From sequence record NC_028894.1: a stretch of DNA of 64,000 bases; one strand, given 5' to 3'. Made by a program: the position numbers and the translations under genes. How positions within the stretch are numbered: position 1 is the stretch's first letter; every line of letters starts with the position of its first letter. This stretch comes from Escherichia phage vB_EcoM_VR20. Below, piece by piece: positions 15,700-36,320 of this stretch. The notes beneath the pieces were generated by a model. That model saw nothing but the letters and a program-made list of their open reading frames with translations, was not told where the DNA came from and made no database searches.

Positions 15700-15760
15700 T
15701 CTCCAGTATTTGGTAACTCAGTATGGGAACATTATACGTCTATCCCCATACTATGTACAC
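15700..15760 (-). promoter_or_regulatory. Class II promoter/leader cassette
   Basis: GTGTACA...CGTATAATGTTCCCATACTGAGTTACCAAATACTGGAGAATAAA-ATG. Confidence 0.45.
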
Positions 15761-15762
15761 CT

Positions 15763-16065
15763 TTAATTAAAAGTTCTTTCAGTATTTTCACCACTGAACC
15801 AGACGCTCTTAACAGCTTGCTGGGCACGATGAAGCTGCTCTGCCATATAAACACCAAGGGCCTCAGCTTTACGTGTCCTGTGGGCTTCTGCGGCGACCAT
15901 TTGCAGCTTATCCATCATGATAAGAGCTTTACATTTCTCCTTCAGAGCATATCGCTTTTTCTCTTCTGGAGTTTTGACCATTCCTCTTAACTTGTGCATT
16001 TTCAACTTAAAATGGTCAGCAGATTTCAGACATGCCTCAATCATGTCAAGTTCATACTTTTTCAT
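15763..16065 (-). CDS. Hypothetical basic helical protein
   Basis: 100 aa ORF. Confidence 0.4.
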   Translation of the reverse strand: MKKYELDMIEACLKSADHFKLKMHKLRGMVKTPEEKKRYALKEKCKALIMMDKLQMVAAEAHRTRKAEALGVYMAEQLHRAQQAVKSVWFSGENTERTFN

Positions 16066-16071
16066 AATTCC

Positions 16072-16290
16072 TCACTTGCGACGACGTTTTGGTAATGGTT
16101 TAGGGAAGAACATTGCTTTACCTGCAGGGGTCAAAGTCACACGCAAAGCATTACCAATACCAAGGGATGCTTTAACCAGACCTTTGGCTTTTAACTCGCC
16201 AAATGCTTGACGTTGTTCAGGGTCACGAGTGTTAACCATCAGACCTTTTTCACCAGCAGCTTTGATTAATTCTAACATTTTATTCTCCAT
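16072..16290 (-). CDS. Hypothetical small basic protein
   Basis: 72 aa; preceded by class II leader cassette and terminator. Confidence 0.4.
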   Translation of the reverse strand: MENKMLELIKAAGEKGLMVNTRDPEQRQAFGELKAKGLVKASLGIGNALRVTLTPAGKAMFFPKPLPKRRRK

Positions 16291-16291
16291 T

Positions 16292-16350
16292 TGTTTATTT
16301 GGTAACTCAGTATGGAATCATTATGCATCATGACCATCTGGTTGTACACT
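16292..16350 (-). promoter_or_regulatory. Class II promoter/leader cassette
   Basis: GTGTACA-17bp-GCATAATGATTCCATACTGAGTTACCAAATAAACAAATGGAGAATAAA-ATG. Confidence 0.5.
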
Positions 16351-16356
16351 ACTTTT

Positions 16357-16386
16357 TAAAATAAAAAAGGACCCCGAAGGGTCCTT
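16357..16386 (-). terminator. Rho-independent terminator
   Basis: GGACCCcgaaGGGTCC hairpin followed on minus strand by TTTTTTATTTT; immediately downstream of 16392..17402. Confidence 0.6.
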
Positions 16387-16391
16387 AGAAT

Positions 16392-17402
16392 TTAACGATA
16401 ATAGGAATTGTGGTTGTCAAGATATACCTCTTCAACAAACTTGTCCCAGAACTTCATGTCTACCTTATCAGGCATACCATTCTTAGCGGCCCAGATGGCA
16501 TTAGTTTCGACTTCATCAATGATAGCTTCAAGTTCGGCCTGTACATCTTTAAAAGCATGAAGCCCTTGTTTGATTTCAAGGATAAATGGTGCTGTACGTA
16601 AAGGATATTGGAGGTCACCAGTTTGATAGATTTCCTTCAACTGGTATCCAGCACGATAAGCATGGCTCAGAGCTTTCCAGTCAATACCTTCATTGGCTTC
16701 TGCCTTACGAGCACGTTCACCATATTCGGCATCGAGTTTATTCAGAGATTGCTTGAGCTCGATTAAAGACAAGGTGGTTTGGTACTTACGTCCAAGAACA
16801 GTATAGAACGTTTGAGGGCCTGTTTTCTCGTGGTTATGGAATACCCATTCACAGAACTCATTTTCAGGGAGTCGATGTTTGATATCTTCTACCTTAGTGC
16901 GACGTTGCTTAGTCGAACCATCTTCTTGATAGTCGACCCACTGTTCAGGAATCTGGTTAACGATTGCCAGTACACCACGTAGAGCGGCCAATCGAGAACC
17001 TTTAACACCATACTTAGAAGCTTGCTTGCGGACATAACCCAAATAGGCTTTCATGTTAGTTGTATAGAACCGTGAACGGTTATCCTGGATAAACTTCCAT
17101 ACATCTGGTAAATCGGATTTGACAACCAGGTCAGCCGGGGTGTGAATCATATCCAGGGCAACGGTTTCGCCTTCGGCCGCCAGTTTAAAGAAATATTTCA
17201 GACTATAAAGTTCATGGTCAACATCATCTTTTGTATTTTTGGTAGCCGTGTTATTCGTGTTCAGGTTGGTATGGTTCATCGCCGTCCCAAGTAGAATATC
17301 ACGAGGATGTGGAACAAAGATTTCTTTAAAATCGACATCAGATTCTGGGGTACTTGTTCCATAAAGGTGGCTACCGAAGTAGCCTTTCATAACTGTTCTC
17401 AT
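16392..17402 (-). CDS. Predicted nucleotidyltransferase-fold protein (Pol-beta superfamily-like)
   Basis: 336 aa; N-terminal GSHLYGTSTPESDVDFK fits G[SG]x9-13[DE]h[DE]h signature; start at internal Met with GAGGA SD; ATGA overlap with upstream membrane ORF. Confidence 0.5.
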   Translation of the reverse strand: MRTVMKGYFGSHLYGTSTPESDVDFKEIFVPHPRDILLGTAMNHTNLNTNNTATKNTKDDVDHELYSLKYFFKLAAEGETVALDMIHTPADLVVKSDLPDVWKFIQDNRSRFYTTNMKAYLGYVRKQASKYGVKGSRLAALRGVLAIVNQIPEQWVDYQEDGSTKQRRTKVEDIKHRLPENEFCEWVFHNHEKTGPQTFYTVLGRKYQTTLSLIELKQSLNKLDAEYGERARKAEANEGIDWKALSHAYRAGYQLKEIYQTGDLQYPLRTAPFILEIKQGLHAFKDVQAELEAIIDEVETNAIWAAKNGMPDKVDMKFWDKFVEEVYLDNHNSYYR

Positions 17403-17851
17403 TTTTTGTCCTCGAAGTGGATTACAGGACACATCTTAGATTTACGAGCTTTAATGTATTGAATAACGATGTTTTCTTTAGTTTCCTTTCCTTCACGTTT
17501 GGCTAGAATACGTTGCCATTCCTTTTCTTCTTTATGTAAATCATACCAGGACCATAAATTCATTAGACCATACATTAAACCAAATGCTACCGCCAGAATA
17601 AGAGCCAGTGTAGCTAGTCCTAAAATAAACCCTAAGCCTAAACCGACCGGGGTACTTAATACAAAGAAATGCTCTAATACACCGGCCCCCGCGACAGTTA
17701 ATCCAAAAACCATACTACCGATAAAAATGGCACAAACAAAACAAGCCCAAACCATTTTCCAAAAGTAAGCACACAATGAGTGTGGACGAGAATGGCGGTC
17801 ATAAAAACGGTCATGGAAGCGAGCGTGCCAAGAGTTTGCATTGATAATCAT
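17399..17851 (-). CDS. Integral membrane protein
   Basis: 150 aa; hydrophobic segments FVCAIFIGSMVFGLTVAGAGVL and LGLGFILGLATLALILAVAFGLMYGL. Confidence 0.5.
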   Translation of the reverse strand: MIINANSWHARFHDRFYDRHSRPHSLCAYFWKMVWACFVCAIFIGSMVFGLTVAGAGVLEHFFVLSTPVGLGLGFILGLATLALILAVAFGLMYGLMNLWSWYDLHKEEKEWQRILAKREGKETKENIVIQYIKARKSKMCPVIHFEDKK

Positions 17852-17861
17852 AATATTTTCC

Positions 17862-18419
17862 TTAAGAGTTCATAGTTGGGATAACAGAGTTCAGATAAGA
17901 GACTAAAACTTTTAGCTCGTCCTTAGTAAATACCACTTCACTTTCACCGTCGTGGGTCTGAACGATGGATAATAAGTCACGACCCTCGTGTTGATGAACC
18001 GTAAGCTCTGTATTATAATCGCCTTCTTCGTCACCTTCAAACGTTTCACTAGAACGAATCAGTGCATCTTGACCAGGGACTTTCCATTCAACTTCTGGCT
18101 TGCATTCTTCCTGGAAGAGTTTGAAAATACAATCAAAGAATTTATCAGAATCGCTGATGCTCAGACATTCAATACCATTTTCCAGATTAAACCCGTTTTC
18201 GTTTTTATAGATATAGGCATACATATCATCATTGATATCAATAGGAGCACTAGCACGACCATTAAGATAATCGTGTCTATCCAAAACCATTAAATCATAA
18301 AGCGGTTTAATATCAGCGATAGTCAGCACGATTTTATCGTCTTCTTGTGAAAGCTCAATTGCGTTATTAACTACTTCAGCGGTCAGTTCGCCAAACAATT
18401 CAGTTGTTTCAATAATCAT
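17862..18419 (-). CDS. Hypothetical acidic protein
   Basis: 185 aa ORF. Confidence 0.45.
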   Translation of the reverse strand: MIIETTELFGELTAEVVNNAIELSQEDDKIVLTIADIKPLYDLMVLDRHDYLNGRASAPIDINDDMYAYIYKNENGFNLENGIECLSISDSDKFFDCIFKLFQEECKPEVEWKVPGQDALIRSSETFEGDEEGDYNTELTVHQHEGRDLLSIVQTHDGESEVVFTKDELKVLVSYLNSVIPTMNS

Positions 18420-18429
18420 TTTCTGTTCC

Positions 18430-18720
18430 TCAACGGTTATGTTTTAAAATACTATAAAGAGCTTCTACTTGGCTTGCATCCAGGTAAATAACATCATCAT
18501 CTTGCTCAATGGAAATCCCACCAGTATTGCCTTCAACGAAATTACATTCGCACACTTCAACGGGGCGGTATACGTCACCAACTGGATGTTCAGGCTCCAG
18601 AACAATCACACCATTTTCAGAATTACCACTTGGGTCGTATAACATTACAGTTTCCTCGCTAACCATGAAAAGAATAAACCAATTAAAACAGGCCCTACAG
18701 CCATTATTAACCAAGCCCAA
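18430..18720 (-). CDS. Hypothetical protein
   Basis: 96 aa ORF. Confidence 0.35.
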   Translation of the reverse strand: MGLVNNGCRACFNWFILFMVSEETVMLYDPSGNSENGVIVLEPEHPVGDVYRPVEVCECNFVEGNTGGISIEQDDDVIYLDASQVEALYSILKHNR

Positions 18721-18736
18721 GGTTCAAGATAGTAAA

Positions 18737-18994
18737 TCATCTCATGCTCCTATGCCAACAGTTACGTGGCTCACGTTTAAAAATTTCATCATGCATTGAT
18801 TGACAACCAACACAATATATCACACCTTTAATCGCTTGTCTCCGCGCTTCAGGAATTTTTTCGTCGCAGTCAAAACAGAATTCAGCAGACTCCCTTTCAA
18901 CTGCAACCTGTGCTCTCGCATAGGTGATAGCGGCTTGTACAACCGCTTCCATCTCTAACTGTTCAGCGCCATCTTTTGCAAATCCAACAGCCAT
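18737..18994 (-). CDS. TraR/DksA-type C4 zinc-finger protein
   Basis: 85 aa; CFDCDEKIPEARRQAIKGVIYCVGCQ (CxxC-x17-CxxC) after an N-terminal helix. Confidence 0.5.
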   Translation of the reverse strand: MAVGFAKDGAEQLEMEAVVQAAITYARAQVAVERESAEFCFDCDEKIPEARRQAIKGVIYCVGCQSMHDEIFKREPRNCWHRSMR

Positions 18995-19176
18995 TATTCT
19001 TTCAACCCATTCAGATATTCAACCAAATTAGCTTTAGAGTTATTCAAATCACGCTTACACTGTTCTATTCCAGAATATGAATATCCTTCACATAATTCCA
19101 CTGCCAGGTCATTAGATGCGTTTTCAATATGCCAGGCAAGTTTAATAATTTTTTCAATTTGTTCAGTAGTTAACAT
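18994..19176 (-). CDS. Hypothetical protein
   Basis: 60 aa ORF. Confidence 0.3.
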   Translation of the reverse strand: MLTTEQIEKIIKLAWHIENASNDLAVELCEGYSYSGIEQCKRDLNNSKANLVEYLNGLKE

Positions 19177-19180
19177 AATA

Positions 19181-19417
19181 TCACCAGTATTTGTTGATGG
19201 TAGAAATTAATTCTTGGACTTGAGTATTTTTCAGTTTACACCCGCAACTTTTTAATGTTTCTTTAAAAAGCTCAACCTCTTTAAGCTGTTCCTTTTCCAG
19301 GCGGATTCTGTACCCCCTGTAATCAGCAAATATGCTTCTGTCATCAAATATCTTAATTTCAAGAATATGATTGTTGGTTTCATATTCCAATGAAACCATA
19401 GTATTTGTAAGTTTCAT
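19181..19417 (-). CDS. Hypothetical protein
   Basis: 78 aa ORF. Confidence 0.35.
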   Translation of the reverse strand: MKLTNTMVSLEYETNNHILEIKIFDDRSIFADYRGYRIRLEKEQLKEVELFKETLKSCGCKLKNTQVQELISTINKYW

Positions 19418-19701
19418 TATTCCACCACATATGATAATGAGAAAATTGCTGATGAAAGATGAGTAGCATCTTCTTCACACAGTTCAAATGGAGCTTTCTG
19501 CAAGAGTTCAACCACTTCTTCATCAGTGGCACTGTCCATAAAGATTGCATAATCGTTAAGATAGATAACAACCTCATCACCAGTATTAACTGCATCAATC
19601 TTGATGTTCTTAATTCTCATTGTATTCTCCTCAGTAGTTGATGGGATAATAGTACACCCTTTTGATGAGGATGTAAACCCCCTAAATGAAAAAAGGTCCA
19701 C
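19417..19701 (-). CDS. Hypothetical protein
   Basis: 94 aa ORF preceded by class I promoter cassette. Confidence 0.4.
   Translation of the reverse strand: MDLFSFRGFTSSSKGCTIIPSTTEENTMRIKNIKIDAVNTGDEVVIYLNDYAIFMDSATDEEVVELLQKAPFELCEEDATHLSSAIFSLSYVVE
19630..19680 (-). promoter_or_regulatory. Class I early-promoter/leader cassette
   Basis: GTTTAC...GTGTACTATTATCCCATCAACTACTGAGGAGAA. Confidence 0.4.
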
Positions 19702-19721
19702 CCGAAGGCAGACCTTTTGAA

Positions 19722-20105
19722 TTACTCTAATGTTAACAGGTACTTGGTTTGAAAGAAAACGCCAACGATATCGTCCAGAGTCGATTGAATAGCCTTGGGT
19801 ACAACTTTATAGACTCTTTCAGAGCTTTTAATCATTTCATCTAAAAACAAAATTGTATCTTTCGGCAAGTCCGAGGCGGACGGTAATGCAGCTTTGTATT
19901 GTTTCCCGCTGTAACCTAACCATTGCTCACTGAACTGGTCGAGTGGACCTTGGATTTCTGTGAAGTAGAAATCATAAGCTTTATGGCGGGCGTAACTTTT
20001 GGTTTCAAGATGGGCGGATTTAAAATAAGCCAAAGAGACTAACAACCACCCAATATATGAATCCACCTCAGACCCACGACCTGTTACGAAATCATCGAAT
20101 TTCAT
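19722..20105 (-). CDS. Hypothetical protein (rI.-1 position)
   Basis: 127 aa ORF directly downstream of rI. Confidence 0.45.
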   Translation of the reverse strand: MKFDDFVTGRGSEVDSYIGWLLVSLAYFKSAHLETKSYARHKAYDFYFTEIQGPLDQFSEQWLGYSGKQYKAALPSASDLPKDTILFLDEMIKSSERVYKVVPKAIQSTLDDIVGVFFQTKYLLTLE

Positions 20106-20388
20106 CTTCCAATTTTACCTTCATTAATTTAGCGTATTCGACTGCAGCAGCCCGGCCATCAATTTGACATGTGATTTCATTTACACATTGACTCTTATTG
20201 TTCCATTCAGTTTTAATAAAAGCCCAAAATTGTTCGGACTGCTCGACGCTGGGTTCTTTGAATTGCGAATAGATTTGCATCGCACTATCTGCATATTGTG
20301 TAAATTTACCATCTGTAGCAGAGGACAGATTTGGGCCTAAACAGCCCATTAGTAATAGACTTAGAGAAAGTCCTCGAATAAGGTCCAT
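20092..20388 (-). CDS. rI: Lysis inhibition regulator rI (membrane-anchored periplasmic)
   Basis: 98 aa from internal Met: N-terminal anchor LSLSLLLMGCLG; SVEQSEQFWAFIKTEWNN...AVEYAKLMKVKLEDE resembles T4 RI; AAGGAG SD; late promoter upstream. Confidence 0.65.
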   Translation of the reverse strand: MDLIRGLSLSLLLMGCLGPNLSSATDGKFTQYADSAMQIYSQFKEPSVEQSEQFWAFIKTEWNNKSQCVNEITCQIDGRAAAVEYAKLMKVKLEDEIR

Positions 20389-20459
20389 AAAGGACTCCTT
20401 ATTGTTGGTCATGATTACGCTTTGCAGCCTTAACATAGCGGAATACTAGTTAGTAACTG

Positions 20460-20467
20460 TATTTATA
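20460..20467 (-). promoter_or_regulatory. T4-type late promoter TATAAATA
   Basis: Exact TATAAATA on minus strand ~70 nt upstream of rI start. Confidence 0.5.
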
Positions 20468-20738
20468 ATCTTTTAAACTTGAAACAATATATTGCAAATA
20501 AATCAGAAAAATGTCTATCAACCCATATTCTTTGCACTGGACTAGTAACAGTCAGCATATAATGTGCTTTTTGTAAATTTATTCCATTTTTATTCGGGCA
20601 TTCTTTATTAACAGAATGGTACGTGCTTGCTACTATTTCAATTTCCCTTTCATATCTCTCGCTATCTGTTTGTGTGGGGATAAATGCAATTCCAGCAATA
20701 ACAAAAATAGAGATATACGTCCAAATCTTATATATCAT
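20463..20738 (-). CDS. Small secreted/membrane protein
   Basis: 91 aa; N-terminal hydrophobic IWTYISIFVIAGIAFIP. Confidence 0.4.
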   Translation of the reverse strand: MIYKIWTYISIFVIAGIAFIPTQTDSERYEREIEIVASTYHSVNKECPNKNGINLQKAHYMLTVTSPVQRIWVDRHFSDLFAIYCFKFKRL

Positions 20739-20745
20739 AAGGACC

Positions 20746-21318
20746 TCAGCTTGTCAATTCGAGCCAATGTTTCCTGCATAAAGATACGTACGATTCATTC
20801 CCACCGACTAACACTTGCTCGCCGTCCTTTACAGCAGCACCGTCGATTACTCGAGCGGTCATGGTTGCTTTCCGGCCGCAATGGCAGACGCCCTTTAATT
20901 CAACCAGTTTATCCGAAATAGCCAGAAGTCTGGCTGAACCGGGAAATAACTGACCCCGAAAATCTGTTCTTAGCCCGTAACACATAACGGGGATATTATA
21001 ATTATCAACCACTCGTGCTAACTGGTCAATTTGCTCTGGTAACAAAAATTGAGCTTCATCAACCAGGACACAATGGATATCCTTTTGAGACTCGGCCCAT
21101 TTATAGAATTCAAACAGGTTCATGTCGGCCGTTACCAGGTTTGCTTCCTGGCTAATACCAATACGTGATTTAATTTCAGATTCCGAGTCCCGATTATCAA
21201 TAACAGGTTTTAGCAAAAGCACACTCATTCCACGCTCTTTATAGGAATAAGCTGCAGTCAGCAATGAAGCTGTTTTGCCTGCATTCATTGCTGCGTAATG
21301 ATAAATTAAACTCGCCAT
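20746..21318 (-). CDS. tk: Thymidine kinase
   Basis: 190 aa; P-loop AMNAGKTASLL, VDEAQF, C-terminal zinc cysteines CHCG...C typical of TK. Confidence 0.9.
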   Translation of the reverse strand: MASLIYHYAAMNAGKTASLLTAAYSYKERGMSVLLLKPVIDNRDSESEIKSRIGISQEANLVTADMNLFEFYKWAESQKDIHCVLVDEAQFLLPEQIDQLARVVDNYNIPVMCYGLRTDFRGQLFPGSARLLAISDKLVELKGVCHCGRKATMTARVIDGAAVKDGEQVLVGGNESYVSLCRKHWLELTS

Positions 21319-21327
21319 ATCACCTTC

Positions 21328-23076: not shown

Positions 23077-23535
23077 CTAGATATAAATCACTTTTGTGCT
23101 AATTTTTCCTTCCAGACGATTAGAGTTAACAAACGCCATACGACAACACATGGTTGGAGACTTCCCAGGTAATGCCGGGTTAACTGTCATTCCTAACCAT
23201 AGGTTCTTGTCTGTGATTTCCAGACGAAGTGGACGGTAGTTCACATTCGGGTCAATTTGTGCTTCAACTTCTGGAAGCGGTTCCATTTTTAAGAATTCAA
23301 CAATTTCTTTTACATGTGGTGTGATTTTTCCAAACAAGTCAAAAACATATTGTTCGTCAATTTCACGTTGGATTGCACGGTCCAACAGGTGTGGACTGTA
23401 CTTAATGAAGAATGCTTCAAGGCCTGCTTCTTTACAAGCCTTGTTGATAGCATTATTAATTTTGAGGAACTCCGTTTCAAAAATACGACGAAGTTTATTG
23501 CGGCGAATGTAAACACTTGAATCAATAGTAGTCAT
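23077..23535 (-). CDS. regB: Endoribonuclease RegB
   Basis: 152 aa from internal Met; VYIRRNKLRR...YSPHLLDRAIQREIDEQYVFDLF...LEITDKNLWLG...CRMAFVNSNRL matches T4 RegB. Confidence 0.8.
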   Translation of the reverse strand: MTTIDSSVYIRRNKLRRIFETEFLKINNAINKACKEAGLEAFFIKYSPHLLDRAIQREIDEQYVFDLFGKITPHVKEIVEFLKMEPLPEVEAQIDPNVNYRPLRLEITDKNLWLGMTVNPALPGKSPTMCCRMAFVNSNRLEGKISTKVIYI

Positions 23536-23554
23536 GATTATCTCCTTTTGTTTG

Positions 23555-24171
<617 letters not shown>

Positions 24172-25366: not shown

Positions 25367-25666
25367 TTAGAAAGAACCAGAGCCTTTAATTGTGTTCTGG
25401 CGACCTTTATTTTCTAATTCAGAATGGTCAATTTCATATGCTTGTGCTACGCCAAAGGCCTTTTTAACTTTAGCTAAAGAACCTTTAGATGTAACAATAT
25501 TAAAAGTATTACCTTTAGTAAAATCAACCAAATCCACTTGTACACCTTGTTTACCGAGGCTTGCGACAATAGCATCAACATATTGTTGGTCTAAATTGCC
25601 CTGGACTCCGATTTGAAATGCTTTAGGAGCTTTAGCTTCTGTGATAAATTCTTGATAAGTTTTCAT
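25367..25666 (-). CDS. Internal-protein-like ORF with capsid targeting sequence
   Basis: 99 aa; N-terminus MKTYQEFITE (CTS-like) with I-x-E site. Confidence 0.55.
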   Translation of the reverse strand: MKTYQEFITEAKAPKAFQIGVQGNLDQQYVDAIVASLGKQGVQVDLVDFTKGNTFNIVTSKGSLAKVKKAFGVAQAYEIDHSELENKGRQNTIKGSGSF

Positions 25667-25674
25667 TTATTCTC

Positions 25675-25725
25675 TCCAAGTTGATGGGATAATTATGCAC
25701 TATCCCATCAAAAAGTAAACAGTTA
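25675..25725 (-). promoter_or_regulatory. Class I early-promoter/leader cassette
   Basis: GTTTAC-17bp-TGCATAATTATCCCATCAACTTGGAGAGAA; inverted repeat GATGGGATA..TATCCCATC around -10. Confidence 0.5.
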
Positions 25726-25986
25726 TGCTTTACCGCCAGAAACAATACCAAAGGTCTCAAAGTCCCATTCAATATCGTCAACATCAACTTTCTTACCAGC
25801 AACCACGAATGCGATTTCGCGACGTTTTGCATAGGTGACAATTTCTTTACCATCACCGCCAAAGAAAGAATAACCATTGCGCTTCATGGTGCCAAAGTCT
25901 TCAGCATCACCAGCAAACGCGCGGACTTTAAAGGAACCAGCAGGAGCTTTAGCAGATTCAGTAATAAATTCTTGATAAGTTTTCAT
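25723..25986 (-). CDS. Internal-protein-like ORF with capsid targeting sequence
   Basis: 87 aa; N-terminus MKTYQEFITES. Confidence 0.55.
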   Translation of the reverse strand: MKTYQEFITESAKAPAGSFKVRAFAGDAEDFGTMKRNGYSFFGGDGKEIVTYAKRREIAFVVAGKKVDVDDIEWDFETFGIVSGGKA

Positions 25987-25999
25987 AATGTCTCTTTAA

Positions 26000-26314
26000 T
26001 TAAGCTTTAGGGAAATCGCGCAAAAACGCATCATAAAGTTTATTACCAATACGACGGAATGCTTTTGCTGCATGAACGTTATCCGGGTTTGCAATTTTAA
26101 TCTGCATTACATGACTACCCGCCCATGATTTAGCTTCGTCATAATAACCTTTAATTTCTTTAATAGTCTTGCGTTTGCCGCCAGGACCATCAACAGTAAT
26201 TTTCCACGAACCCGTGCTTGTTTCACTTGGTGGGGTTAATTGTTCAATCCAGACATAACCGCCTTCAACACGTTTTTGGGTGGATTCAGTAATAAATTCT
26301 TGATAAGTTTTCAT
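26000..26314 (-). CDS. Internal-protein-like ORF with capsid targeting sequence
   Basis: Start taken at internal Met giving MKTYQEFITEST...; 104 aa. Confidence 0.5.
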   Translation of the reverse strand: MKTYQEFITESTQKRVEGGYVWIEQLTPPSETSTGSWKITVDGPGGKRKTIKEIKGYYDEAKSWAGSHVMQIKIANPDNVHAAKAFRRIGNKLYDAFLRDFPKA

Positions 26315-26362
26315 TTTATATTCCATTGTTTGGTTGATAAAATCATTATACAACCTTTTTAG

Positions 26363-26779
26363 TTAAGCGTACACAGCTTTCCCATAGTATTTGTACCAGG
26401 TAGGCTTTTGAGAAATTTTCTCATTCAATCTGGCTTGACTGATTTCAATTGACCAGATTGATGGTTGATAATCATTCTTCCATTCATCAGGAATATCATT
26501 TAAATCTTGGGTAGAAATATCTTTTATGTTAAACCCTCGCTTTAAACATTCCGCAATAAGTTCTTGATGACGGTTTTTAAGGAACAAAAGTTTATCATAA
26601 AAGAAGGTGACATGACCAGTCCCTAAAAGAAAAGATGATGGGATTTTAAAGTCAGAAACCTTTTTACCATTTTGTACATGTTTGCGAACCGCACCAAACA
26701 CGCGAGGAAGCTCACGATATTCAGCCATAAGATGTTGGTCAGCAAGTTCAGATACCAGGGTTAAATTAATGCGAGTCAT
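26363..26779 (-). CDS. denV: Endonuclease V (pyrimidine-dimer DNA glycosylase) DenV
   Basis: 138 aa; [35 protein letters not shown]... nearly identical to T4 DenV. Confidence 0.9.
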
Positions 26780-26789
26780 GTTTGTTCCT

Positions 26790-26830
26790 CCAAGTAGTTG
26801 ATGGGATAATAATACATCAATACGAGGAGG
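26790..26830 (-). promoter_or_regulatory. Class I early-promoter/leader cassette
   Basis: TATTATTATCCCATCAACTACTTGGAGGAA upstream of denV. Confidence 0.45.
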
Positions 26831-26838
26831 TTGTAAAC

Positions 26839-27120
26839 TTATTTTGTGGAAGCAGCCGAGATATATTTTTCAAGACGCTGTTTCATCAGCGAGCCGTTCT
26901 TAGCGATTTCTTCCGGTTTATCGCACATACGCAATAGAGCTTCAAGCTTAGTGATATCAGATGTCCGCTCAAATTTGCGAGTATCTACCTTACTAGCAAG
27001 TTCGGAAATACGCGCTAACAGACTTTCGGCTTCTACCAAAGCTGTGCCCAGCTTAGTTGCAAATGTGTCAGTAGCTTCATTAAGAGTGGTCACGGTCAAA
27101 AATTCATTATAGGTTTTCAT
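26839..27120 (-). CDS. Internal-protein-like ORF with capsid targeting sequence
   Basis: 93 aa; N-terminus [15 protein letters not shown]. Confidence 0.5.
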
Positions 27121-27601
27121 ATGCTTTCCAAGTTCCTGTTTTAAATGTTGAGATTACACGTTTCGCTCGATTAGGTGTTTGTTTGTACCATTTGGATTGA
27201 GCCAGGTTAACAGCAGCTTCGTCCCAACGTTTCTGTTGAAGCAACCGAAGGGAGTTAGTAAACCCAGCAACGCCGGCTTCACCCATTTGGAAGACCATAT
27301 TAATCAGGGCACAGCGACGAACTTCGTCAAGACTATCATACACTGGTTTTAATTTAGCATTACGCATAACACTCGCACGTGCTTTTTCCACTGAACGGTT
27401 AAACAAGGTTTCAGCTTCAACCTGGGTTATGCGACCATTGCAGACGCGACCCATGAGCTTGTCGAGCTCGGCACGAGCAACATCTTTAGACGGGTTCTTA
27501 GTTATCAGTTGCCCGATACCGATGGTCCAAAAGCCTTCGGTATCTTTATACAAATCCAACTTACAACCTTCATCTATGCGTAACATTTCGAATATATTCA
27601 T
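27107..27601 (-). CDS. e: Endolysin (T4 lysozyme, gene e)
   Basis: 164 aa; [12 protein letters not shown]...[11 protein letters not shown]...[33 protein letters not shown] matches T4 lysozyme incl. E11/D20/T26. Confidence 0.9.
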
Positions 27602-30595: not shown

Positions 30596-30609
30596 AATAT
30601 TTTCCTCAT

Positions 30610-30777: not shown

Positions 30778-30784
30778 ATATTTT

Positions 30785-30830
30785 CCTCATTAGTTGACGA
30801 GATAATGATACTACGTTTCTTTAGGCTTGT
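30785..30830 (-). promoter_or_regulatory. Class I early-promoter/leader cassette (variant)
   Basis: GTGTACA...TATCATTATCTCGTCAACTAATGAGGAAAATATT. Confidence 0.4.
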
Positions 30831-30879
30831 ACACTAAATTTCTGCACATAAGTCCTCCTATCACATCCTTGTGATAATT

Positions 30880-31113
30880 TTAGCAGCTACTCGGATACCA
30901 GATTTTACCATCGGCACGAGCAACGAAGGTACGACCAGCTTCTTCACCATAACAAGAGCTGTTCAACCAGTCTTCAAGACGGACTTCGCCGTCATAATCA
31001 TCAAGCTCAACACCAAAATCTTGAGCAGAAGCCATATCTTTTACTTTCTTATACAGTGCAGCCAGTTCAAGGGCGGCTTTTTCTAATTCAGCATGTTCAA
31101 CAGCAGTAGTCAT
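30880..31113 (-). CDS. Small protein, member 1 of C-terminal WxSSxxC paralog array
   Basis: 77 aa; N-terminal helix, internal WLNSSC and C-terminal ...GKIWYPSSC. Confidence 0.5.
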   Translation of the reverse strand: MTTAVEHAELEKAALELAALYKKVKDMASAQDFGVELDDYDGEVRLEDWLNSSCYGEEAGRTFVARADGKIWYPSSC

Positions 31114-31122
31114 TTTATCACC

Positions 31123-31350
31123 TTAGCAAGACATAGAGGAGTTGTACCAGAAACCTTTACCTTCTGGGATACCATAATCACCGTGAATCCAGTCATATTT
31201 TTTATATTCTGGGCAACCCGCGGGAATATATCGCTGAAGACTGTCAGCATATACATGAAAGTATTCACCAGTTTTATCGGCCAGCTGTTCACCTTCACAG
31301 ATTAGTGCACGGATTTGGTCTTCAATTTCTTTAACAGTTTTAGTAGTCAT
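31123..31350 (-). CDS. Small protein, member 2 of C-terminal WxSSxxC paralog array
   Basis: 75 aa; ends ...GKGFWYNSSMSC. Confidence 0.5.
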   Translation of the reverse strand: MTTKTVKEIEDQIRALICEGEQLADKTGEYFHVYADSLQRYIPAGCPEYKKYDWIHGDYGIPEGKGFWYNSSMSC

Positions 31351-31358
31351 TTATTTCC

Positions 31359-31571
31359 TTAGCATTCGTAAGAGGAGGACACCCAGGAGTTACCGCTAAT
31401 AGTAATACAACCATTATAAAGCGTGATATGTTGTTCCAGATTACGCTGACCATCGATATAGATATCAGCTTCTTCACGTTCTTCTTTACAAATCTGGATA
31501 ACATTTTCAATAGCTGCCGCGGCAGTACGGATTGCACAATCTAATTCACGAGACATAACATTCCTTAACAT
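31359..31571 (-). CDS. Small protein, member 3 of C-terminal WxSSxxC paralog array
   Basis: 70 aa; ends ...SGNSWVSSSYEC. Confidence 0.45.
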   Translation of the reverse strand: MLRNVMSRELDCAIRTAAAAIENVIQICKEEREEADIYIDGQRNLEQHITLYNGCITISGNSWVSSSYEC

Positions 31572-31846
31572 TCAGCAGAAGAGGACACCCAACCACCATT
31601 TTCCAGGTCAGTTGTATAGTCATGAGTATTAACAATAGCCCATTCAGGATGACCATGTTCTTCCCAATGAGCAAGGTCAGCTTTCAGGGCGCCAGGAGAA
31701 TAATAGTCACCGCCCATACCGCGAGCAGGGTATATATTAAAATGAGTCTCATATTTGTCTGCAATTTCCTCGGCACGACGAATAGCTTTATGGATGTCAT
31801 TTACTGCGTTAGCCAGTTCTTTATTTTTACGGTAATCATTCATCAT
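31565..31846 (-). CDS. Small protein, member 4 of C-terminal WxSSxxC paralog array
   Basis: 93 aa; EEIADKYETHFNIYP...GGWVSSSAEC. Confidence 0.5.
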   Translation of the reverse strand: MMNDYRKNKELANAVNDIHKAIRRAEEIADKYETHFNIYPARGMGGDYYSPGALKADLAHWEEHGHPEWAIVNTHDYTTDLENGGWVSSSAEC

Positions 31847-31855
31847 AGCGTTTCC

Positions 31856-32146
31856 TTAGCACATTGCCGAAGAGGAGACCCAAGCACCAACTGTAACGAC
31901 ACCGTTTTCAACTTCACCGCCGTTGTTTTCAATTTCATCTTTAAACCACTGGGAGCATTCATAACCGACAGGATAATATGTACGGCCCGAACCATAATCA
32001 CCGGTACCAAATTGGATACCATATTCATCTGCGATTTCTTCACAGTGTTTTTCAATTTCAGAGGTCTTATTTAGAAGAGAATAGATAGCTTTTTCTGCAG
32101 ATTTCTCATCATAATACTTGGGGATAGCAATTTCAATTTTATTCAT
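31856..32146 (-). CDS. Small protein, member 5 of C-terminal WxSSxxC paralog array
   Basis: 96 aa; EEIADEYGIQFGTGDYGSGRTYYP...GAWVSSSAMC. Confidence 0.5.
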   Translation of the reverse strand: MNKIEIAIPKYYDEKSAEKAIYSLLNKTSEIEKHCEEIADEYGIQFGTGDYGSGRTYYPVGYECSQWFKDEIENNGGEVENGVVTVGAWVSSSAMC

Positions 32147-32496
32147 GATTTACATTCCTTAATAAAGGTTTCAAGGTCATTACGTTTTGTTTTGTCTAGG
32201 AACTTATTATACTCAGCCATTGCTGAAGCATATCTCTTCCGACTAGGAGCATTCACGGCGTTTGTGTGACAGATATCATACACAACAGGTATAAAATAAG
32301 ACACAACAGCCGGAGCGATTATCATAAAGAAGCCCATCTCAATAGGCATCACTCCCTCGATTGCAGCCATAACCGTGGTCATTACCAGACCAACCAAACC
32401 ACCAAGCATGGCGGTGACAATCCCTAATAATAAATTGGCACCAATATCATATTCAGCCAATTGATAAACATGTGATGCAAGATTAGGCCGTTCCAT
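32143..32496 (-). CDS. Two-TM membrane protein with C-terminal FIKECKS tail
   Basis: Start at internal Met (MERPNLASHV); hydrophobic segments; C-terminus ...LETFIKECKS. Confidence 0.45.
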   Translation of the reverse strand: MERPNLASHVYQLAEYDIGANLLLGIVTAMLGGLVGLVMTTVMAAIEGVMPIEMGFFMIIAPAVVSYFIPVVYDICHTNAVNAPSRKRYASAMAEYNKFLDKTKRNDLETFIKECKS

Positions 32497-32842
32497 TACG
32501 AACCTCCTTAATAAATTCTTCGGCACATTTAATTTTGTGCTCTTCTTGCAGGGAAACACATTTTTGTTCCCACTCTTTAACTCGTCCCCGATAACCTTTA
32601 TTCATATGATTTTGATGCCACACATTTATCAATACCATACACAGGACTGTAATAAAAGGAGCTGCAATTACTAGCGTCCAGGCGACTCCAACACTAATGA
32701 TATTCATATCCCCACAAAGCACCATCATTATAACCCCAACGATGCACATGGACAGAGCTCCAAATGGAGGCATAAGGTCTTTATCAATCTTGTCTGCGTA
32801 CACAAATTTTTCTGGTTTACTTGGCAGATATAACGTTCGCAT
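32483..32842 (-). CDS. Two-TM membrane protein, paralog of 32143..32496
   Basis: Start at internal Met MRTLYLPSK with AAAGGGG SD; C-terminus ...EEFIKEVRNGTA. Confidence 0.45.
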   Translation of the reverse strand: MRTLYLPSKPEKFVYADKIDKDLMPPFGALSMCIVGVIMMVLCGDMNIISVGVAWTLVIAAPFITVLCMVLINVWHQNHMNKGYRGRVKEWEQKCVSLQEEHKIKCAEEFIKEVRNGTA

Positions 32843-33371
32843 TTTGAACCCCTTTAGCATATTCACGACATTCAGCAATAAAACGATTAAGCTTTCGTTT
32901 TTGTTTATGACTTTCTAATGTGTACTCAGACGTCAAATCAAGAAGCTCAGCTTTATCATAATTTTTAATATCAGTATAAGCTGGCCGGCGGTCAACCATT
33001 CCAAATACATCACCATTTTCTAGCGCCACATAACATACTAAATGGTAATCATCATCTGCCATATTAAGAAGTATACAATCATCGCTCTCGTTTAAAGCAT
33101 ATACTGAATAACGTAGTCCAGCGAATTCCACTCGTTGAATACCCAGATTTACATCAATAATTTCCAAGGCATCTGCGAAAGAAAGGTCTTCAGCTAAAGC
33201 AAAAATAAAAGGCAATTTTGTAGTATCGCCACGGCTAGTTGTTCTTCTTAAGAAATCATTGGAATAACCCAAGTCACCGCGGATTCTATAAAGAACTGTA
33301 TTAGTTTCAGTAGCAAGGCCACTACCGCCAAACCAGTCTACATTTGATATAAGGTCAGTATATAAGCTCAT
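32817..33371 (-). CDS. Hypothetical acidic protein with C-terminal FIAECRE motif
   Basis: 184 aa from MSLYTDLIS (GGAGAGGAG SD); C-terminal ...KLNRFIAECREYAKG. Confidence 0.45.
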   Translation of the reverse strand: MSLYTDLISNVDWFGGSGLATETNTVLYRIRGDLGYSNDFLRRTTSRGDTTKLPFIFALAEDLSFADALEIIDVNLGIQRVEFAGLRYSVYALNESDDCILLNMADDDYHLVCYVALENGDVFGMVDRRPAYTDIKNYDKAELLDLTSEYTLESHKQKRKLNRFIAECREYAKGVQNANVISAK

Positions 33372-33414
33372 AATTTTCTCCTCTCCCAATTAGGGGGCTT
33401 TGCCCCCCTTTATC

Positions 33415-34008
33415 TTACTTAAGTGAATTGATGTATTCTTCAATGTCAGCGGATGTGGTATCCACACCAACCTGTGGACCTTTGAAGGTTTCAACACGCA
33501 TCAGAGTGTCTTCAATATCAATCTTAGTCAATGCAGCGATTTCAACAACATCATCTGCGGTTGCAATACCTAGGGCAGACACCTTACGGGTTTCGCGGAT
33601 GTATTCCAGTTTAACAGCTAGTTCCTGACGAGAGTCATCCAGCTCTTTAACTTTCAATTTAATTTCATTACGCATTTCAACATAATCATCTGCCTTCTTA
33701 CGAAGTTGTTTAGCAGTGCGACGATACAGGAGACCCAGTTTAGCATGGACCTGGACATCAGCACCATCAGCAATCAGTTTACGAATTTCACGCTCTTTTG
33801 AAGCGGCGAGCTGGTCTTTTTCATTCGCTAGCTCGCGGATGCGTTTTTCTTCATTAACAGACTTAACGTGGGCAGTCTGGAGCTCAGTAATCTTATCAAT
33901 CAGGGTAGAAGCAGCTTTAGTATACTGGTCTTCAATAGACAGGTTTTGCGCCATTGCAGTACCCAGTTTGGAGCGGATAAATTCAACAAGTTTCTTTAAA
34001 GTATTCAT
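33415..34008 (-). CDS. Coiled-coil protein (possibly PspA/IM30-like)
   Basis: 197 aa, largely predicted helical with heptad-like charged repeats; family assignment unverified. Confidence 0.4.
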
Positions 34009-34083
34009 GGTATTTCCTTCAGATGGTTAAAGTTTTATTATCCAGGGAACATACTATCATGTTCCCAGAGGTATGTAAACATT

Positions 34084-34482
34084 TTATTTCATTTTTGCGA
34101 GGCAGATTTCATTGGCTTCCCATTGAGCTTGCTTAATAATAGCTTTGGATACAGGAACCTTTTGACCATAAGTTTTTGACGTTGAGAGAACAATATATTT
34201 GTTTGCCTCATTATGCCAGCCCCATGATTTTTCACCATGAGTACCTTTAACTACAGCTGACACCTCAACAGAACAACCATCAGCGCCAATCTTGGTATCA
34301 ACAATCCATTCATTTCGCTTAATTGCTTCTTCCAATGCTGCTGCTTCCGCCATCCAGTGTGTTTCAGGGTCTATTTGTTCAATCTCACGAGTTAACGCAG
34401 CTCCCAGGTCTTTTGCATATTTTTGTTGCTCTGGGGTTAATGAGTCATATAACTTTTTCATTTCTTTATCTTCAATATTCAT
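34084..34482 (-). CDS. Hypothetical protein
   Basis: 132 aa from MNIEDKEMKK with GAGGAAAATATT SD. Confidence 0.45.
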   Translation of the reverse strand: MNIEDKEMKKLYDSLTPEQQKYAKDLGAALTREIEQIDPETHWMAEAAALEEAIKRNEWIVDTKIGADGCSVEVSAVVKGTHGEKSWGWHNEANKYIVLSTSKTYGQKVPVSKAIIKQAQWEANEICLAKMK

Positions 34483-34516
34483 AATATTTTCCTCAAGGGG
34501 CTTTCGCCCCAATCAT

Positions 34517-34822
34517 TTAAATTTTGTTTTCCTGCACACCATAATAAAGTTCATCAGACACAATATCCAGGATGCGGCGAACATATTCATCATGGTATTG
34601 GCAGTCAAAATCAAATGCAACAGTAGTTTCCGCTTCACGAGTGAATTTAACTTGCACATTCAGGTGATTAACAACGTTAGTTAATTTATCAGTAAAGAAC
34701 TCTTTTGCTACCGCCTGTTGGACTTGCACTTTGAACTTGGTGTTACGAATCATATTTTCAGCAGATGTGAAATTACCAGTTTTATCAAAGTCAACAAGCG
34801 CCAGGTTGATGATGAATTTCAT
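34517..34822 (-). CDS. Hypothetical protein
   Basis: 101 aa ORF preceded by class II leader cassette. Confidence 0.45.
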   Translation of the reverse strand: MKFIINLALVDFDKTGNFTSAENMIRNTKFKVQVQQAVAKEFFTDKLTNVVNHLNVQVKFTREAETTVAFDFDCQYHDEYVRRILDIVSDELYYGVQENKI

Positions 34823-34824
34823 TT

Positions 34825-34900
34825 TATTCTCCAGTGTTTTATTTGGTAACTCAGTATGGAATCATTATGCCTTAAAGCAGGGGGCTTGTATACCCCCTTT
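34825..34900 (-). promoter_or_regulatory. Class II promoter/leader cassette with upstream GC hairpin
   Basis: GGGGGtatacaagCCCCC hairpin, then GCATAATGATTCCATACTGAGTTACCAAATAAAACACTGGAGAATAAA-ATG. Confidence 0.5.
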
Positions 34901-34904
34901 TTAA

Positions 34905-35348
34905 TTAAATTTCAAATTCTTTGCGGAAGTTGGAAGCATAAGACTGAACTGATGCTTTGTTGAATCCAAACTCACGCACAATCATATCAATAACAGCTCT
35001 GCGAGCAGCACCGTTAGACATATTAACAGTTCTGAACATATCATAGCATAAATCTTTGTTGCTCATACCGGAGCGTTTAGGTGCCTTACGTTCAGCTTTT
35101 GGTTCAGCTTTAGGAGTAGGTTTAACTTCTGGTTTAACCTGTCCATCATTCAGACCTTTAAAAATTTTACCTGCCAGAGTTGCCAGTTTAGCAGCTTCGC
35201 CACGAGTGATACCAAATACTGCCGGGTTAAATGAAATACCTTCAGCTGTCAGACGTTTGAAGAACATACGTGCTGCGGATTGTGCTTCAGCTTCAGAAGA
35301 GTTGTTTAATGCCAGTTTAACATACTTAACCAGTTTTGAAGTTTTCAT
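34905..35348 (-). CDS. Hypothetical protein, paralog family with conserved C-terminal domain
   Basis: 147 aa; C-terminus ...NGAARRAVIDMIVREFGFNKASVQSYASNFRK shared with 35801..36226; class II leader upstream. Confidence 0.5.
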   Translation of the reverse strand: MKTSKLVKYVKLALNNSSEAEAQSAARMFFKRLTAEGISFNPAVFGITRGEAAKLATLAGKIFKGLNDGQVKPEVKPTPKAEPKAERKAPKRSGMSNKDLCYDMFRTVNMSNGAARRAVIDMIVREFGFNKASVQSYASNFRKEFEI

Positions 35349-35349
35349 T

Positions 35350-35420
35350 TTATTATCCCGTTTGTTTATTTGGTAACTCAGTATGGAATCATTATGCCTT
35401 AGTTAAATTCCAAAGTACAT
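35350..35420 (-). promoter_or_regulatory. Class II promoter/leader cassette
   Basis: GCATAATGATTCCATACTGAGTTACCAAATAAACAAACGGGATAATAAA-ATG. Confidence 0.5.
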
Positions 35421-35421
35421 A

Positions 35422-35718
35422 TTAATTTTCAGAAGTTGGGAAATAAACTTCAAAGTCATACATGTTTACTACTGCAGTCGCGATTGCTTGGTACTGCATA
35501 CCCAAGAAAGTTTTCTTGTTCTTACGCCACAAGTTAACCATTTCTGTTTTGATGCATGCCAGGGAGTAGTTGGATGCAGGATACTGTTTGATGATTGCAA
35601 CAACTTCTTCAGAAGCAGTTTCGCACAATTCATTCAGTTGAGCTTCAATTTTAGCAGAAATGATTGCTTTGTTTTCTTCTTGAGCTTGGGTAGCGTGCCA
35701 TGCAGGTGCGTTGAACAT
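35422..35718 (-). CDS. Hypothetical protein
   Basis: 98 aa ORF, class II leader upstream. Confidence 0.45.
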   Translation of the reverse strand: MFNAPAWHATQAQEENKAIISAKIEAQLNELCETASEEVVAIIKQYPASNYSLACIKTEMVNLWRKNKKTFLGMQYQAIATAVVNMYDFEVYFPTSEN

Positions 35719-35719
35719 T

Positions 35720-35790
35720 TTATTCTCCAGTGTTTTATTTGTTAACTCAGTATGGGATAATTATACACTATCCCACCTGGAAGTAAAACA
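35720..35790 (-). promoter_or_regulatory. Hybrid class I/II promoter/leader cassette
   Basis: GTGTATAATTATCCCATACTGAGTTAACAAATAAAACACTGGAGAATAAA-ATG. Confidence 0.5.
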
Positions 35791-35800
35791 CTTTTCTCAA

Positions 35801-36226
35801 TTATTTTTGAGCTTTGCGGAAGTTGGATGCATATGACTGAACAACAGTCTTTTTGATATCATGGGTGGTAACCAGAACATCAATCAGAGCGCGACGAGCT
35901 GCATTATCATTCATATCAATTTCTGCAAATGCCTGGAAGCAAATGTCACGAGCATTACCAGATTTGGACTGGATTTTTTCTTCTTTAACTTCTTCAATTG
36001 GGAATTCAATCATTTCAGCTTGGATTAATTCAATGATAGATTCTTTTGACTGTTTGGTGTTTACCTTCAGTTCAGAATTAAGGGACTTGGCGATGGCAAC
36101 AATCTGGGTTGAAGTCAGATGAATAAGTGCATCTTCACGAATGCAGATTTCACATACTTCGTCAGCAACCATTTTGTTGGTGATGCGGGTAACAGAAAAT
36201 GCAGAGGTCAGGGTCAGAAAGTTCAT
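35801..36226 (-). CDS. Hypothetical protein, paralog of 34905..35348
   Basis: 141 aa from internal Met MNFLTL; C-terminus ...DNAARRALIDVLVTTHDIKKTVVQSYASNFRK. Confidence 0.5.
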   Translation of the reverse strand: MNFLTLTSAFSVTRITNKMVADEVCEICIREDALIHLTSTQIVAIAKSLNSELKVNTKQSKESIIELIQAEMIEFPIEEVKEEKIQSKSGNARDICFQAFAEIDMNDNAARRALIDVLVTTHDIKKTVVQSYASNFRKAQK

Positions 36227-36227
36227 T

Positions 36228-36320
36228 TTATTTCTCCAAAGTTTTGTTTGATTCAGTGTGTAACTCAGTATGGAATCATTATGCGCCGGGTCAATTCGGA
36301 TGTACACTACTTTTTGAAGA
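36228..36320 (-). promoter_or_regulatory. Class II promoter/leader cassette
   Basis: GTGTACA...GCATAATGATTCCATACTGAGTTACACACTGAATCAAACAAAACTTTGGAGAAATAAA-ATG. Confidence 0.5.

Follow-up and report, generated by a model that had tools for sequence, protein, structure and literature searches.

The closest described counterparts of the element reported here are the PeSLs (promoter-early stem-loops) of T4-like phages. In RB49 and phi1 their stem-loops lie upstream of the promoter, around the -35 or around the -10, and both promoter and terminator activities have been demonstrated experimentally (Arbiol et al. 2010, PMC2839356; Comeau et al. 2014, PMC4122927). Published logos of T4-like early promoters show a GTTTAC-type -35 with G at -36, an A-rich stretch at -40 to -44 and a TAnnnT -10, with C favoured at -3 to -1 (PMC1524935; PMC2988021), and strong cleavage sites for RegB and ribosomal protein S1 in T4 early mRNAs follow the consensus GG/AGRAYARAA (slash, cut; Durand et al. 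2006, as quoted in PMC3014915). Here, we analyse a repeat, named class II in an earlier note on the same DNA, that precedes six genes in a stretch of 64,000 nucleotides (nt) from Escherichia phage vB_EcoM_VR20 (NC_028894.1; the whole stretch is called the window below). We consider it likely, with a probability of roughly 0.8, that class II repeats are a lineage-specific subfamily of the PeSL-type composite early expression cassettes of T4-like phages. This reading draws on the anatomy of the elements, their block-wise constraint, their genome-wide family, their behaviour as recombination joints, an exact RegB/S1 motif and the presence of regB.

Over long stretches the window matches Gaprivervirus T4-like coliphages (VR7, VR25, DK-13, P479) at 91-96% identity, and its gene order is syntenic with VR25 nrdC.4 … tk … vs … regB … denV … e … nudE … tRNA. 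Nearly all of its genes lie on the minus strand, on which the class II elements must also be read; they fall in the nrdC-mobD and e-tRNA regions and are numbered here as cassettes 1 to 6 (Table 1). The repeat is far from random. Allowing up to three mismatches, ATAATGATTCCATACTGAG has six matches in the window where shuffles predict 0.02, and every one of the six is on the minus strand; the 22-mer CCATACTGAGTTACCAAATAAA has five against 0.00 expected. All six copies that the earlier note had listed are therefore present. Each fills an intergenic gap, beginning with the stop codon of the preceding gene or a terminator hairpin, then an A/T tract (aaaaagt, ttaattaaag, aattaaaaag and similar, read directly in the copies) and a GTGTACA-like heptamer. 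A 17 bp spacer, (C/T)ATAAT and a C-rich discriminator, GATTCC (or GTTCCC / TATCCC), make up the middle, and the 3' part consists of ATACTGAGTTA(C/A)C, an A/C-rich linker of variable length and the Shine-Dalgarno (SD) block with the start codon, GGAGAATAAAATG. The predicted transcription start is the A of ATACTGAGTTAC.

In some respects the copies are less alike than first described. The heptamer GTGTACA, given as common to all, is exact in three of the six, while the others carry GTATACA, ATGTACT and GTTTTAC. Near-identity over ~50 nt also has exceptions, since copy 36283 (cassette 6) shares only the promoter and the first ~20-22 leader bases before a different linker and GGAGAAATAAAATG, and copy 35396 (cassette 4) carries GGGATAATAAAATG. 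The hybrid whose first half belongs to the other repeat class, class I, is as reported: in copy 35765 (cassette 5) a class I -10 and discriminator (GGTGGGATAGTG TATAAT TATCCC) is joined at the predicted start to a class II leader, and the promoter half resembles class I repeats at 25697, 39540, 39830 and 40164 (repeat families D1, D7). The six downstream proteins are indeed unrelated, bar a C-terminal domain at 42% identity in the products of 147 and 141 amino acids (aa), and a Pfam search gave no family for any of the six served genes. Because the repeat is real and non-random, precedes unrelated open reading frames (ORFs) and is not a recent local duplication, co-regulation can fairly be inferred.

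To measure constraint, the six loci were aligned across ten genomes (the window, VR25, DK-13, TH54, TH41, ECML-359, TH57, TH55, TH40 and SP18) and pairwise differences per site were calculated. The -10 and the discriminator each show 0 differences per site, the SD block 0.003, positions +1 to +12 0.008 and the -35 0.009. The corresponding values are 0.060 for the promoter spacer and 0.085 for the leader linker, with 0.060 at third and 0.005 at first and second codon positions. The spacer and linker vary like synonymous sites, and the class II element is a series of constrained blocks split by freely evolving segments rather than a uniformly conserved leader. The proposed conserved leader of 25-30 nt survives as two blocks, +1 to +12 and the SD block, while the linker between them varies freely. 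Its description as a transcribed leader holds for only part of the repeat: the predicted start falls about midway along the ~50 nt, and what precedes it is sigma-70 early promoter plus discriminator, so that much of the conservation is at the DNA or promoter level.

The cassettes act as recombination joints at which accessory genes are gained, lost and swapped. The 98-aa gene of cassette 5, found in only 14 phage records, is present in five of the ten genomes and absent from the other five (TH41, ECML-359, TH55, TH40, SP18), and where it is absent the upstream promoter is fused to the next gene via a chimeric leader. In TH41, TH55, TH40 and SP18 the crossover falls inside the start block, and in ECML-359 it is found at or after the SD block; two crossover positions mean that such losses arose independently at least twice. 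DK-13 has another gene in place of the 101-aa one behind cassette 3; the ATG is the breakpoint, and the leader left without its gene is decaying. An insertion of ~1 kb in DK-13, TH54, ECML-359 and TH40 ends exactly at the -35 of cassette 2 and is absent from the window at ~16350-16391. In SP18 the cassette 2 gene is preceded by the promoter half of cassette 1, and there is one class II cassette more, which comes with a new ORFan. The 101-aa protein of the window has 48%-identical homologs in RB49/phi1, and the RB49 gene stands behind a classic RB49 PeSL, TTGACA … GGGGATAT-ag-CATAAT-ATCCCC … GGAGAATCAAATTATG.

The content of the ~1 kb insertion is a separate observation. In a DK-13 stretch (3892-4638, plus strand) it encodes a 248-aa protein, on the strand opposite to cassette 2, that combines an Sf6-type tail needle knob domain (Pfam Phage_tail_NK, E 2.6e-32) with a collagen-like repeat.

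Class II elements form a genome-wide family. The 51-nt leader occurs in 44 phage records, nearly all of them Gaprivervirus, at 8-13 places per genome. A genome-wide motif search was run on the relative VR25, whose sequence was rebuilt from four stretches (169.4 of 170.8 kb). It returned 12 class II copies, all on the early strand and before unrelated genes, among them srd, a motA neighbour and a small gene between gp23 and gp24; the leader variant of cassette 6 recurs next to motA. A loose promoter scan of VR25 gave 43 promoter-like sites, ~38 of them credible, of which ~12 have the class II and ~16 the class I start region (ATCAACTAC). Reciprocal class I/II hybrids both exist, joined at the start site. 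Beyond this group, Morganella phage MP1 (genus Gualtarvirus) has at least five promoters with the same -10/discriminator/start block and a different SD block, GGAGTCWAAAATG; the MP1 paper mentions only '12 promoters' found by MEME. In an IMG/VR scan with a 17-mer, promoter context was seen only in VR25, VR26 and MP1 contigs, and the metagenomic matches, which lie inside unrelated sequence, were discarded as chance. Our literature search found no prior description of the exact motif in VR7-like phages and no transcription start site maps of these phages.

An intermediate promoter and leader was also noted in the window at 26345-26312 (minus strand; TATAAT GATTTT ATCAACCAAACAATGGAATATAAAATG), before an internal-protein gene. 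Its discriminator and linker are class II-like but its start is that of class I; the 'classes' form a mosaic rather than discrete types.

The promoter half is readily recognised. A sigma-70 consensus scan finds five of the six copies (TGTACA/TATACA/TTTACT, 16-17 bp, TATAAT/CATAAT); the sixth, at 35396, has CATAAT with a -35, ATGTACT, that is too weak a match for the scan. The C-rich positions -3 to -1, the A-rich -40s and the GT(T/G)TAC -35 of class II agree with the published T4-like early promoter logos (PMC1524935; PMC2988021). Based on this agreement the start is placed at the A after CC(C), which gives a predicted transcript beginning AUACUGAGUUACC…, and the invariant core from -12 to +13 straddles this predicted site. 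A MotA-box middle promoter was considered and rejected, as the TGCTTTA of cassette 3 lies 3 nt from the -10, the wrong spacing; the T4 late promoter TATAAATA is in none of the six elements as read.

Two further features overlap the cassettes. The leader holds a second promoter-like pair (TTACCA/TTAACA, 17-18 bp, TAAAAT; 9-10 of 12 matches) that overlaps the SD block and ATG at 16305-16277, 34849-34821, 35376-35347 and 35745-35717 (minus strand); its start would fall inside the coding region, and it is probably incidental. In five of the six copies (16325-16309 and equivalents) the -10, discriminator and start read ATG ATT CCA TAC TGA (or ATG TTC CCA TAC TGA), a 4-codon mini-ORF that would occur only in read-through transcripts, has no SD in front and is likely coincidental.

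Downstream of the predicted start, the SD block GGAGAATAAAA is, judged from its sequence, the only candidate RNA-level signal with a specific known mechanism. It is an exact 11-nt match to the RegB/S1 strong-site consensus GGAGRAYARAA as quoted in PMC3014915. This consensus occurs six times in the window against 0.30 expected, five times directly before a minus-strand ATG (in one class I and four class II leaders), and 12 times in VR25 against 0.7 expected, where 11 of the 12 precede early-strand start codons behind early-type promoters. GGAG (or GGAU) stands 6-7 nt before the ATG in all six copies. The GGAGAATAAAA block is common to class I leaders too and is not a class II feature, and regB, which the window encodes (Table 1), is its putative trans-acting partner. 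The co-regulation at the RNA level that had been proposed is thus plausible only through RegB, a known mechanism acting on a block that is not class II-specific, and is not backed by any conserved RNA structure. Each of the six leaders was folded with its first ~30 coding bases and compared with dinucleotide shuffles. All are less stable than the shuffles (z +0.75 to +2.38; -1.8 to -4.2 kcal/mol), leaving the candidate RegB site unsequestered, and an Rfam search of the window returned two tRNAs only and no leader family. On these two grounds a structured cis-regulatory leader (riboswitch, attenuator, thermometer) was rejected; instead, selection appears to keep the leader open.

The regB gene has a comparable leader of its own (23535-23600, minus strand), in which a class-I-like early promoter, GTGTACA … TATGAT TATCCC ATCAAAC, is followed by a GGAG Shine-Dalgarno. 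T4 regB is autoregulated (PMC3014915), and this is the arrangement by which T4 RegB cuts its own mRNA.

The strict conservation of the first transcribed bases invites another explanation, which takes up the RNA-level idea of the earlier note and in which class II would be a dedicated RNA-level regulon, with the first ~13 transcribed bases (AUACUGAGUUACC) serving as a 5' tag for a protein or small RNA that steers translation or stability. Orthologs hardly differ at positions +1 to +12 (0.008, compared with 0.060 at synonymous sites), and these positions are kept in the promoters (at least five) of the distant phage MP1 and combine with either type of -10 and discriminator, as such a tag might. 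However, the invariant block runs on unbroken from the -10 and discriminator across the predicted start, as it would if RNA polymerase made contact with it. It has no conserved structure or Rfam family and, promoter-spacer arms apart, no complementary partner elsewhere in the VR25 genome. Pairing with E. coli 16S rRNA shows no excess: the longest Watson-Crick match is 6 nt, equalled or exceeded in 454 of 500 shuffles, and the duplex energy of -12.2 compares with -10.7 +/- 1.7 for shuffles, 37 of 200 of which are equally good. An epsilon-like translational enhancer pairing with 16S rRNA was dropped on the same evidence. Furthermore, the two start-region families together cover ~28 of the ~38 credible early promoters and look like promoter families rather than a special regulon. 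We regard a tag of this kind as unlikely.

Stem-loops were detected in five of the six copies (-12.6 to -22.2 kcal/mol, z -2.0 to -4.9). In two copies the stem-loop is an upstream terminator, in one a G5/C5 hairpin around the -35 and in two an inverted repeat around the -10. These positions are among those listed for PeSLs (PMC2839356), whose stem-loops may also stand between the two boxes. Cassettes 1 and 5, as well as copies in MP1 and VR25, have a strong inverted repeat around the -10; as the cause of the start-region conservation it was rejected, being absent from four of six copies in the window and nine of twelve in VR25. Cassette 6 also has a spacer hairpin of 3 bp, in which TH41 seems to carry a compensatory change (CCG/CGG to CCA/TGG), but it was too weak to count.

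Hairpins of this type extend beyond class II. In many early promoters the -10 hexamer is looped out between the arms of an inverted repeat, and these arms vary from promoter to promoter (GATGGGATA/TATCCCATC, GTGGGACC/GGTCCCAC, AGTATGGGG/CCCATACT), at 39862-39812, 29636-29586, 15762-15712 and 35791-35741 (minus strand; RNA fold -13.8 to -22.2 kcal/mol), with further cases at ~4882-4832 and ~34077-34027 (minus strand). Such a hairpin can form only in read-through transcripts or single-stranded DNA.

A DNA operator would place the regulation elsewhere, with a phage repressor binding the discriminator/start block, and in some copies the -10 inverted repeat, to close the early promoters. The mechanism by which T4 early promoters are shut off is incompletely understood (PMC3014915; PMC2988021), the block overlaps -10 to +13, where a repressor would act, and in several promoters the -10 lies within an inverted repeat, with arms that are not the same in each (GATGGGATA/TATCCCATC, GTGGGACC/GGTCCCAC, AGTATGGG/CCCATACT). 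Yet the inverted repeat occurs in just two of the six window copies and three of the twelve in VR25, its arms differ from promoter to promoter, which fits an RNA or single-stranded DNA hairpin better than the site of one protein, and PeSL stem-loops have been shown to be terminators in RB49/phi1 (PMC2839356). No candidate repressor was identified either, and we rate an operator as somewhat less probable again than the transcript tag. Finally, a neutral by-product of recent local duplication of genes with their upstream segments is very improbable: four copies do lie within 1.5 kb (34820-36367) and two served genes share a C-terminal domain, but that domain is only 42% identical at the amino-acid level against 85-100% for the leaders, the other flanks are unrelated, the 12 VR25 copies are scattered over the whole genome (170 kb), and diversity across the ten genomes is block-structured (0 to 0.009 in functional blocks, 0.06-0.085 in spacer and linker); recent tandem duplication was rejected.

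Taken as PeSL-type cassettes, the elements would work as follows. The stem-loop, often present, would end or attenuate incoming transcription, and host RNA polymerase would fire the T4-early-type sigma-70 promoters right after infection. The open, unstructured, A/C-rich 5' untranslated region would allow efficient translation of the small accessory genes, until RegB RNase with ribosomal protein S1 cut inside the GGAG (GGAGAAUAAAA) and silenced the cassette mRNAs together. Near-identity of the copies would have two causes. One is purifying selection, visible in the block-wise constraint, which acts on the -35, the -10, the discriminator, the SD block and the first ~12 transcribed bases; the other is recombination or gene conversion among copies, visible in the chimeras. 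The same recombination would also make the cassettes joints for accessory gene exchange, as seen in the related genomes.

Several points weigh against this reading. The start site, the early timing and RegB cleavage are carried over to class II by analogy with T4 and RB49. Two of the six copies are one position off the RegB consensus (GGAUAAUAAAA, with GGAU, and GGAGAAAUAAA), and cassette 4 has a poor -35 and no stem-loop, although one was looked for. Selection and gene conversion are not fully separable, because both lower diversity in the conserved blocks. Moreover, RNA structure, the -10 inverted repeat and 16S pairing do not account for the strict conservation of the discriminator and +1 to +12, a block common even to Morganella phage MP1. 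The most economical reading is promoter-level optimisation, of open-complex and escape properties, spread by recombination. The discriminator-to-+13 block (families ATACTGAGTTAC and ATCAACTAC, in ~28 of ~38 credible early promoters and in the Morganella phage) might instead be a recognition site, as DNA or as mRNA 5' end, for a phage factor, which we judge about as improbable as the transcript tag. If true, such a factor might cause the abrupt shut-off of early promoters or sort early transcripts.

Table 1. Positions of the six class II cassettes, their parts and served genes, and of other features of the window
Feature	Position	Strand	Details
Cassette 1	15692..15762	-	Whole gap between nrdC.9-like ORF stop and nrdC.8-like ORF ATG
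Cassette 1 promoter	-35, 15760-15754; -10, 15736-15731; predicted +1, 15724	-	-35 GTGTACA; -10 TATAAT; discriminator GTTCCC
Cassette 1 SD block	15704-15692	-	GGAGAATAAAATG
Cassette 1 inverted repeat		-	AGTATGGGG/CCCATACT around -10; RNA fold -22.2 kcal/mol, z -4.9
Cassette 1 gene	15170..15694	-	174 aa, NrdC.8-like; ORF; VR25 ortholog annotation; no Pfam match; start codon 15694
Cassette 2	16276..16391	-	Includes upstream intrinsic-terminator hairpin
Cassette 2 terminator	16386-16367	-	AAGGACCCTTCGGGGTCCTT + T-run
Cassette 2 promoter and SD block	-35, 16349-16343; -10, 16325-16320; predicted +1, 16313; SD block, 16288-16276	-	-35 GTGTACA; -10 CATAAT
Cassette 2 gene	16072..16278	-	68 aa, VR7 gp098-like; start codon 16278
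Cassette 3	34820..34904	-	-35 in loop of G5/C5 hairpin
Cassette 3 hairpin	34898-34879	-	GGGGG-TATACAAG-CCCCC; -14.1 kcal/mol
Cassette 3 promoter and SD block	-35, 34893-34887; -10, 34869-34864; predicted +1, 34857; SD block, 34832-34820	-	-35 GTATACA; -10 CATAAT
Cassette 3 gene	34517..34822	-	101 aa; start codon 34822
Cassette 4	35346..35421	-	No stem-loop detected
Cassette 4 promoter	-35, 35420-35414; -10, 35396-35391; predicted +1, 35384	-	-35 ATGTACT; -10 CATAAT
Cassette 4 SD block	35358-35346	-	GGATAATAAAATG (GGAU variant)
Cassette 4 gene	34905..35348	-	147 aa; C-terminal domain 42% identical to 35801-36226 product; start codon 35348
Cassette 5	35716..35800	-	Hybrid: class I promoter half + class II leader
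Cassette 5 promoter and SD block	-35, 35787-35782; -10, 35765-35760; predicted +1, 35753; SD block, 35728-35716	-	-35 TTTACT; 16 bp spacer; -10 TATAAT; discriminator TATCCC
Cassette 5 inverted repeat		-	GGTGGGATA/TATCCCA across -10; -16.1 kcal/mol, z -2.7
Cassette 5 gene	35422..35718	-	98-aa ORFan between two class II leaders; start codon 35718
Cassette 6	36224..36367	-	Class II promoter + first ~20-22 leader bases, different linker after; includes upstream terminator
Cassette 6 terminator	36366-36350	-	AGCCCGCATTGCGGGCT + T-run
Cassette 6 promoter and SD region	-35, 36307-36301; -10, 36283-36278; predicted +1, 36271; GGAGAAATAAAATG, 36237-36224	-	-35 GTGTACA; -10 CATAAT
Cassette 6 gene	35801..36226	-	141 aa; start codon 36226
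regB endoribonuclease gene	23077..23535	-	Pfam REGB_T4, E 3.7e-72
Two adjoining tRNA genes	37914-37987, 37990-38063	-	Rfam tRNA, 73.7 and 62.2 bits

Some neighbouring features of the window were also recorded. The tRNA pair lies just upstream of the class II cluster. A 31-nt repeat, TTCCTTAGCATTCGTAAGAGGAGGACACCCA, has three copies at 31355-31882 (71-100% identity, spacing 206 and 291 nt) in a run of small tandem minus-strand ORFs, where small paralogous genes are possible. Eight minus-strand genes (25635-27122, 39768-40770; repeat families D4/D5) begin with nearly the same ~34 nt, ATGAAAACTTATCAAGAATTTAT…, encoding an N-terminus (MKTYQEFI…) that we take to be the capsid-targeting sequence of T4 internal head proteins. 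The syntenic places in VR25 are annotated ip5/ip7/ip10 and ip6/ip9, and class I cassettes drive several of the eight.

What the analysis yields for the VR7/Gaprivervirus group is a clean set of early cassettes, ~12 per genome and defined by sequence, which predicts the accessory genes that would be fired first and then silenced together by RegB. The exact breakpoints show small accessory genes being swapped at the repeats, supporting the PeSL model and extending it to another T4-like lineage. Possible uses include early-gene annotation, engineered insertions at natural joints and strong, compact promoter and ribosome-binding-site parts, while the strict conservation of the discriminator and first 12 bases offers a modest lead on the tuning or shut-off of T4-like early promoters.

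Among known systems, the strong early promoters of phage T5 offer an analogy only, as sigma-70 early phage promoters with conserved first transcribed bases in another phage and with another sequence; work from the Bujard lab in the 1980s reportedly found that the first ~20 transcribed bases, their downstream sequence region, are conserved and affect late initiation steps. T4-type early promoters are closer. Compared with the Miller 2003 consensus, as far as it is given in PMC2988021 and PMC1524935, class II is alike in the G at -36, the GTTTAC-like -35, the A-rich -40 to -44, the TAnnnT -10, the C-rich -3 to -1 and the position 5' of early genes and novel ORFs. In contrast to that consensus, it has G rather than T at -34, lacks the TGn extended -10 and is far more strongly conserved downstream of the -10. 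With the T4 RegB/S1 strong sites, in the form quoted from Durand et al. 2006, class II shares an intergenic GGAG SD of early genes, the exact 11-nt match, the unpaired context and a phage-encoded regB; two of the six copies deviate, and cleavage here is a prediction from sequence.

The closest likeness is to the PeSLs of RB49/phi1, PST/T4 and nt-1/KVP40 (Arbiol et al. 2010, PMC2839356; Comeau et al. 2014, PMC4122927), which are the same kind of repeated intergenic module of ~60-100 bp, with an A/T tract, a sigma-70-type early promoter, a variably placed stem-loop and a 3' SD with ATG. Class II differs in its -35, GTGTACA and not TTGACA, in one copy without a stem-loop, and in a strictly conserved discriminator and first 12 transcribed bases, which are not emphasised for PeSLs. 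Promoter, terminator and mini-circle activity are PeSL traits that the class II cassettes may share. Both are concentrated beside small ORFans in hyperplastic regions, at indel or replacement breakpoints between close relatives, and the homolog of one class II-served gene stands behind a classic RB49 PeSL. The class II repeat is real and functionally meaningful and is largely explained already by known biology, and it is the sequence subfamily that is new.

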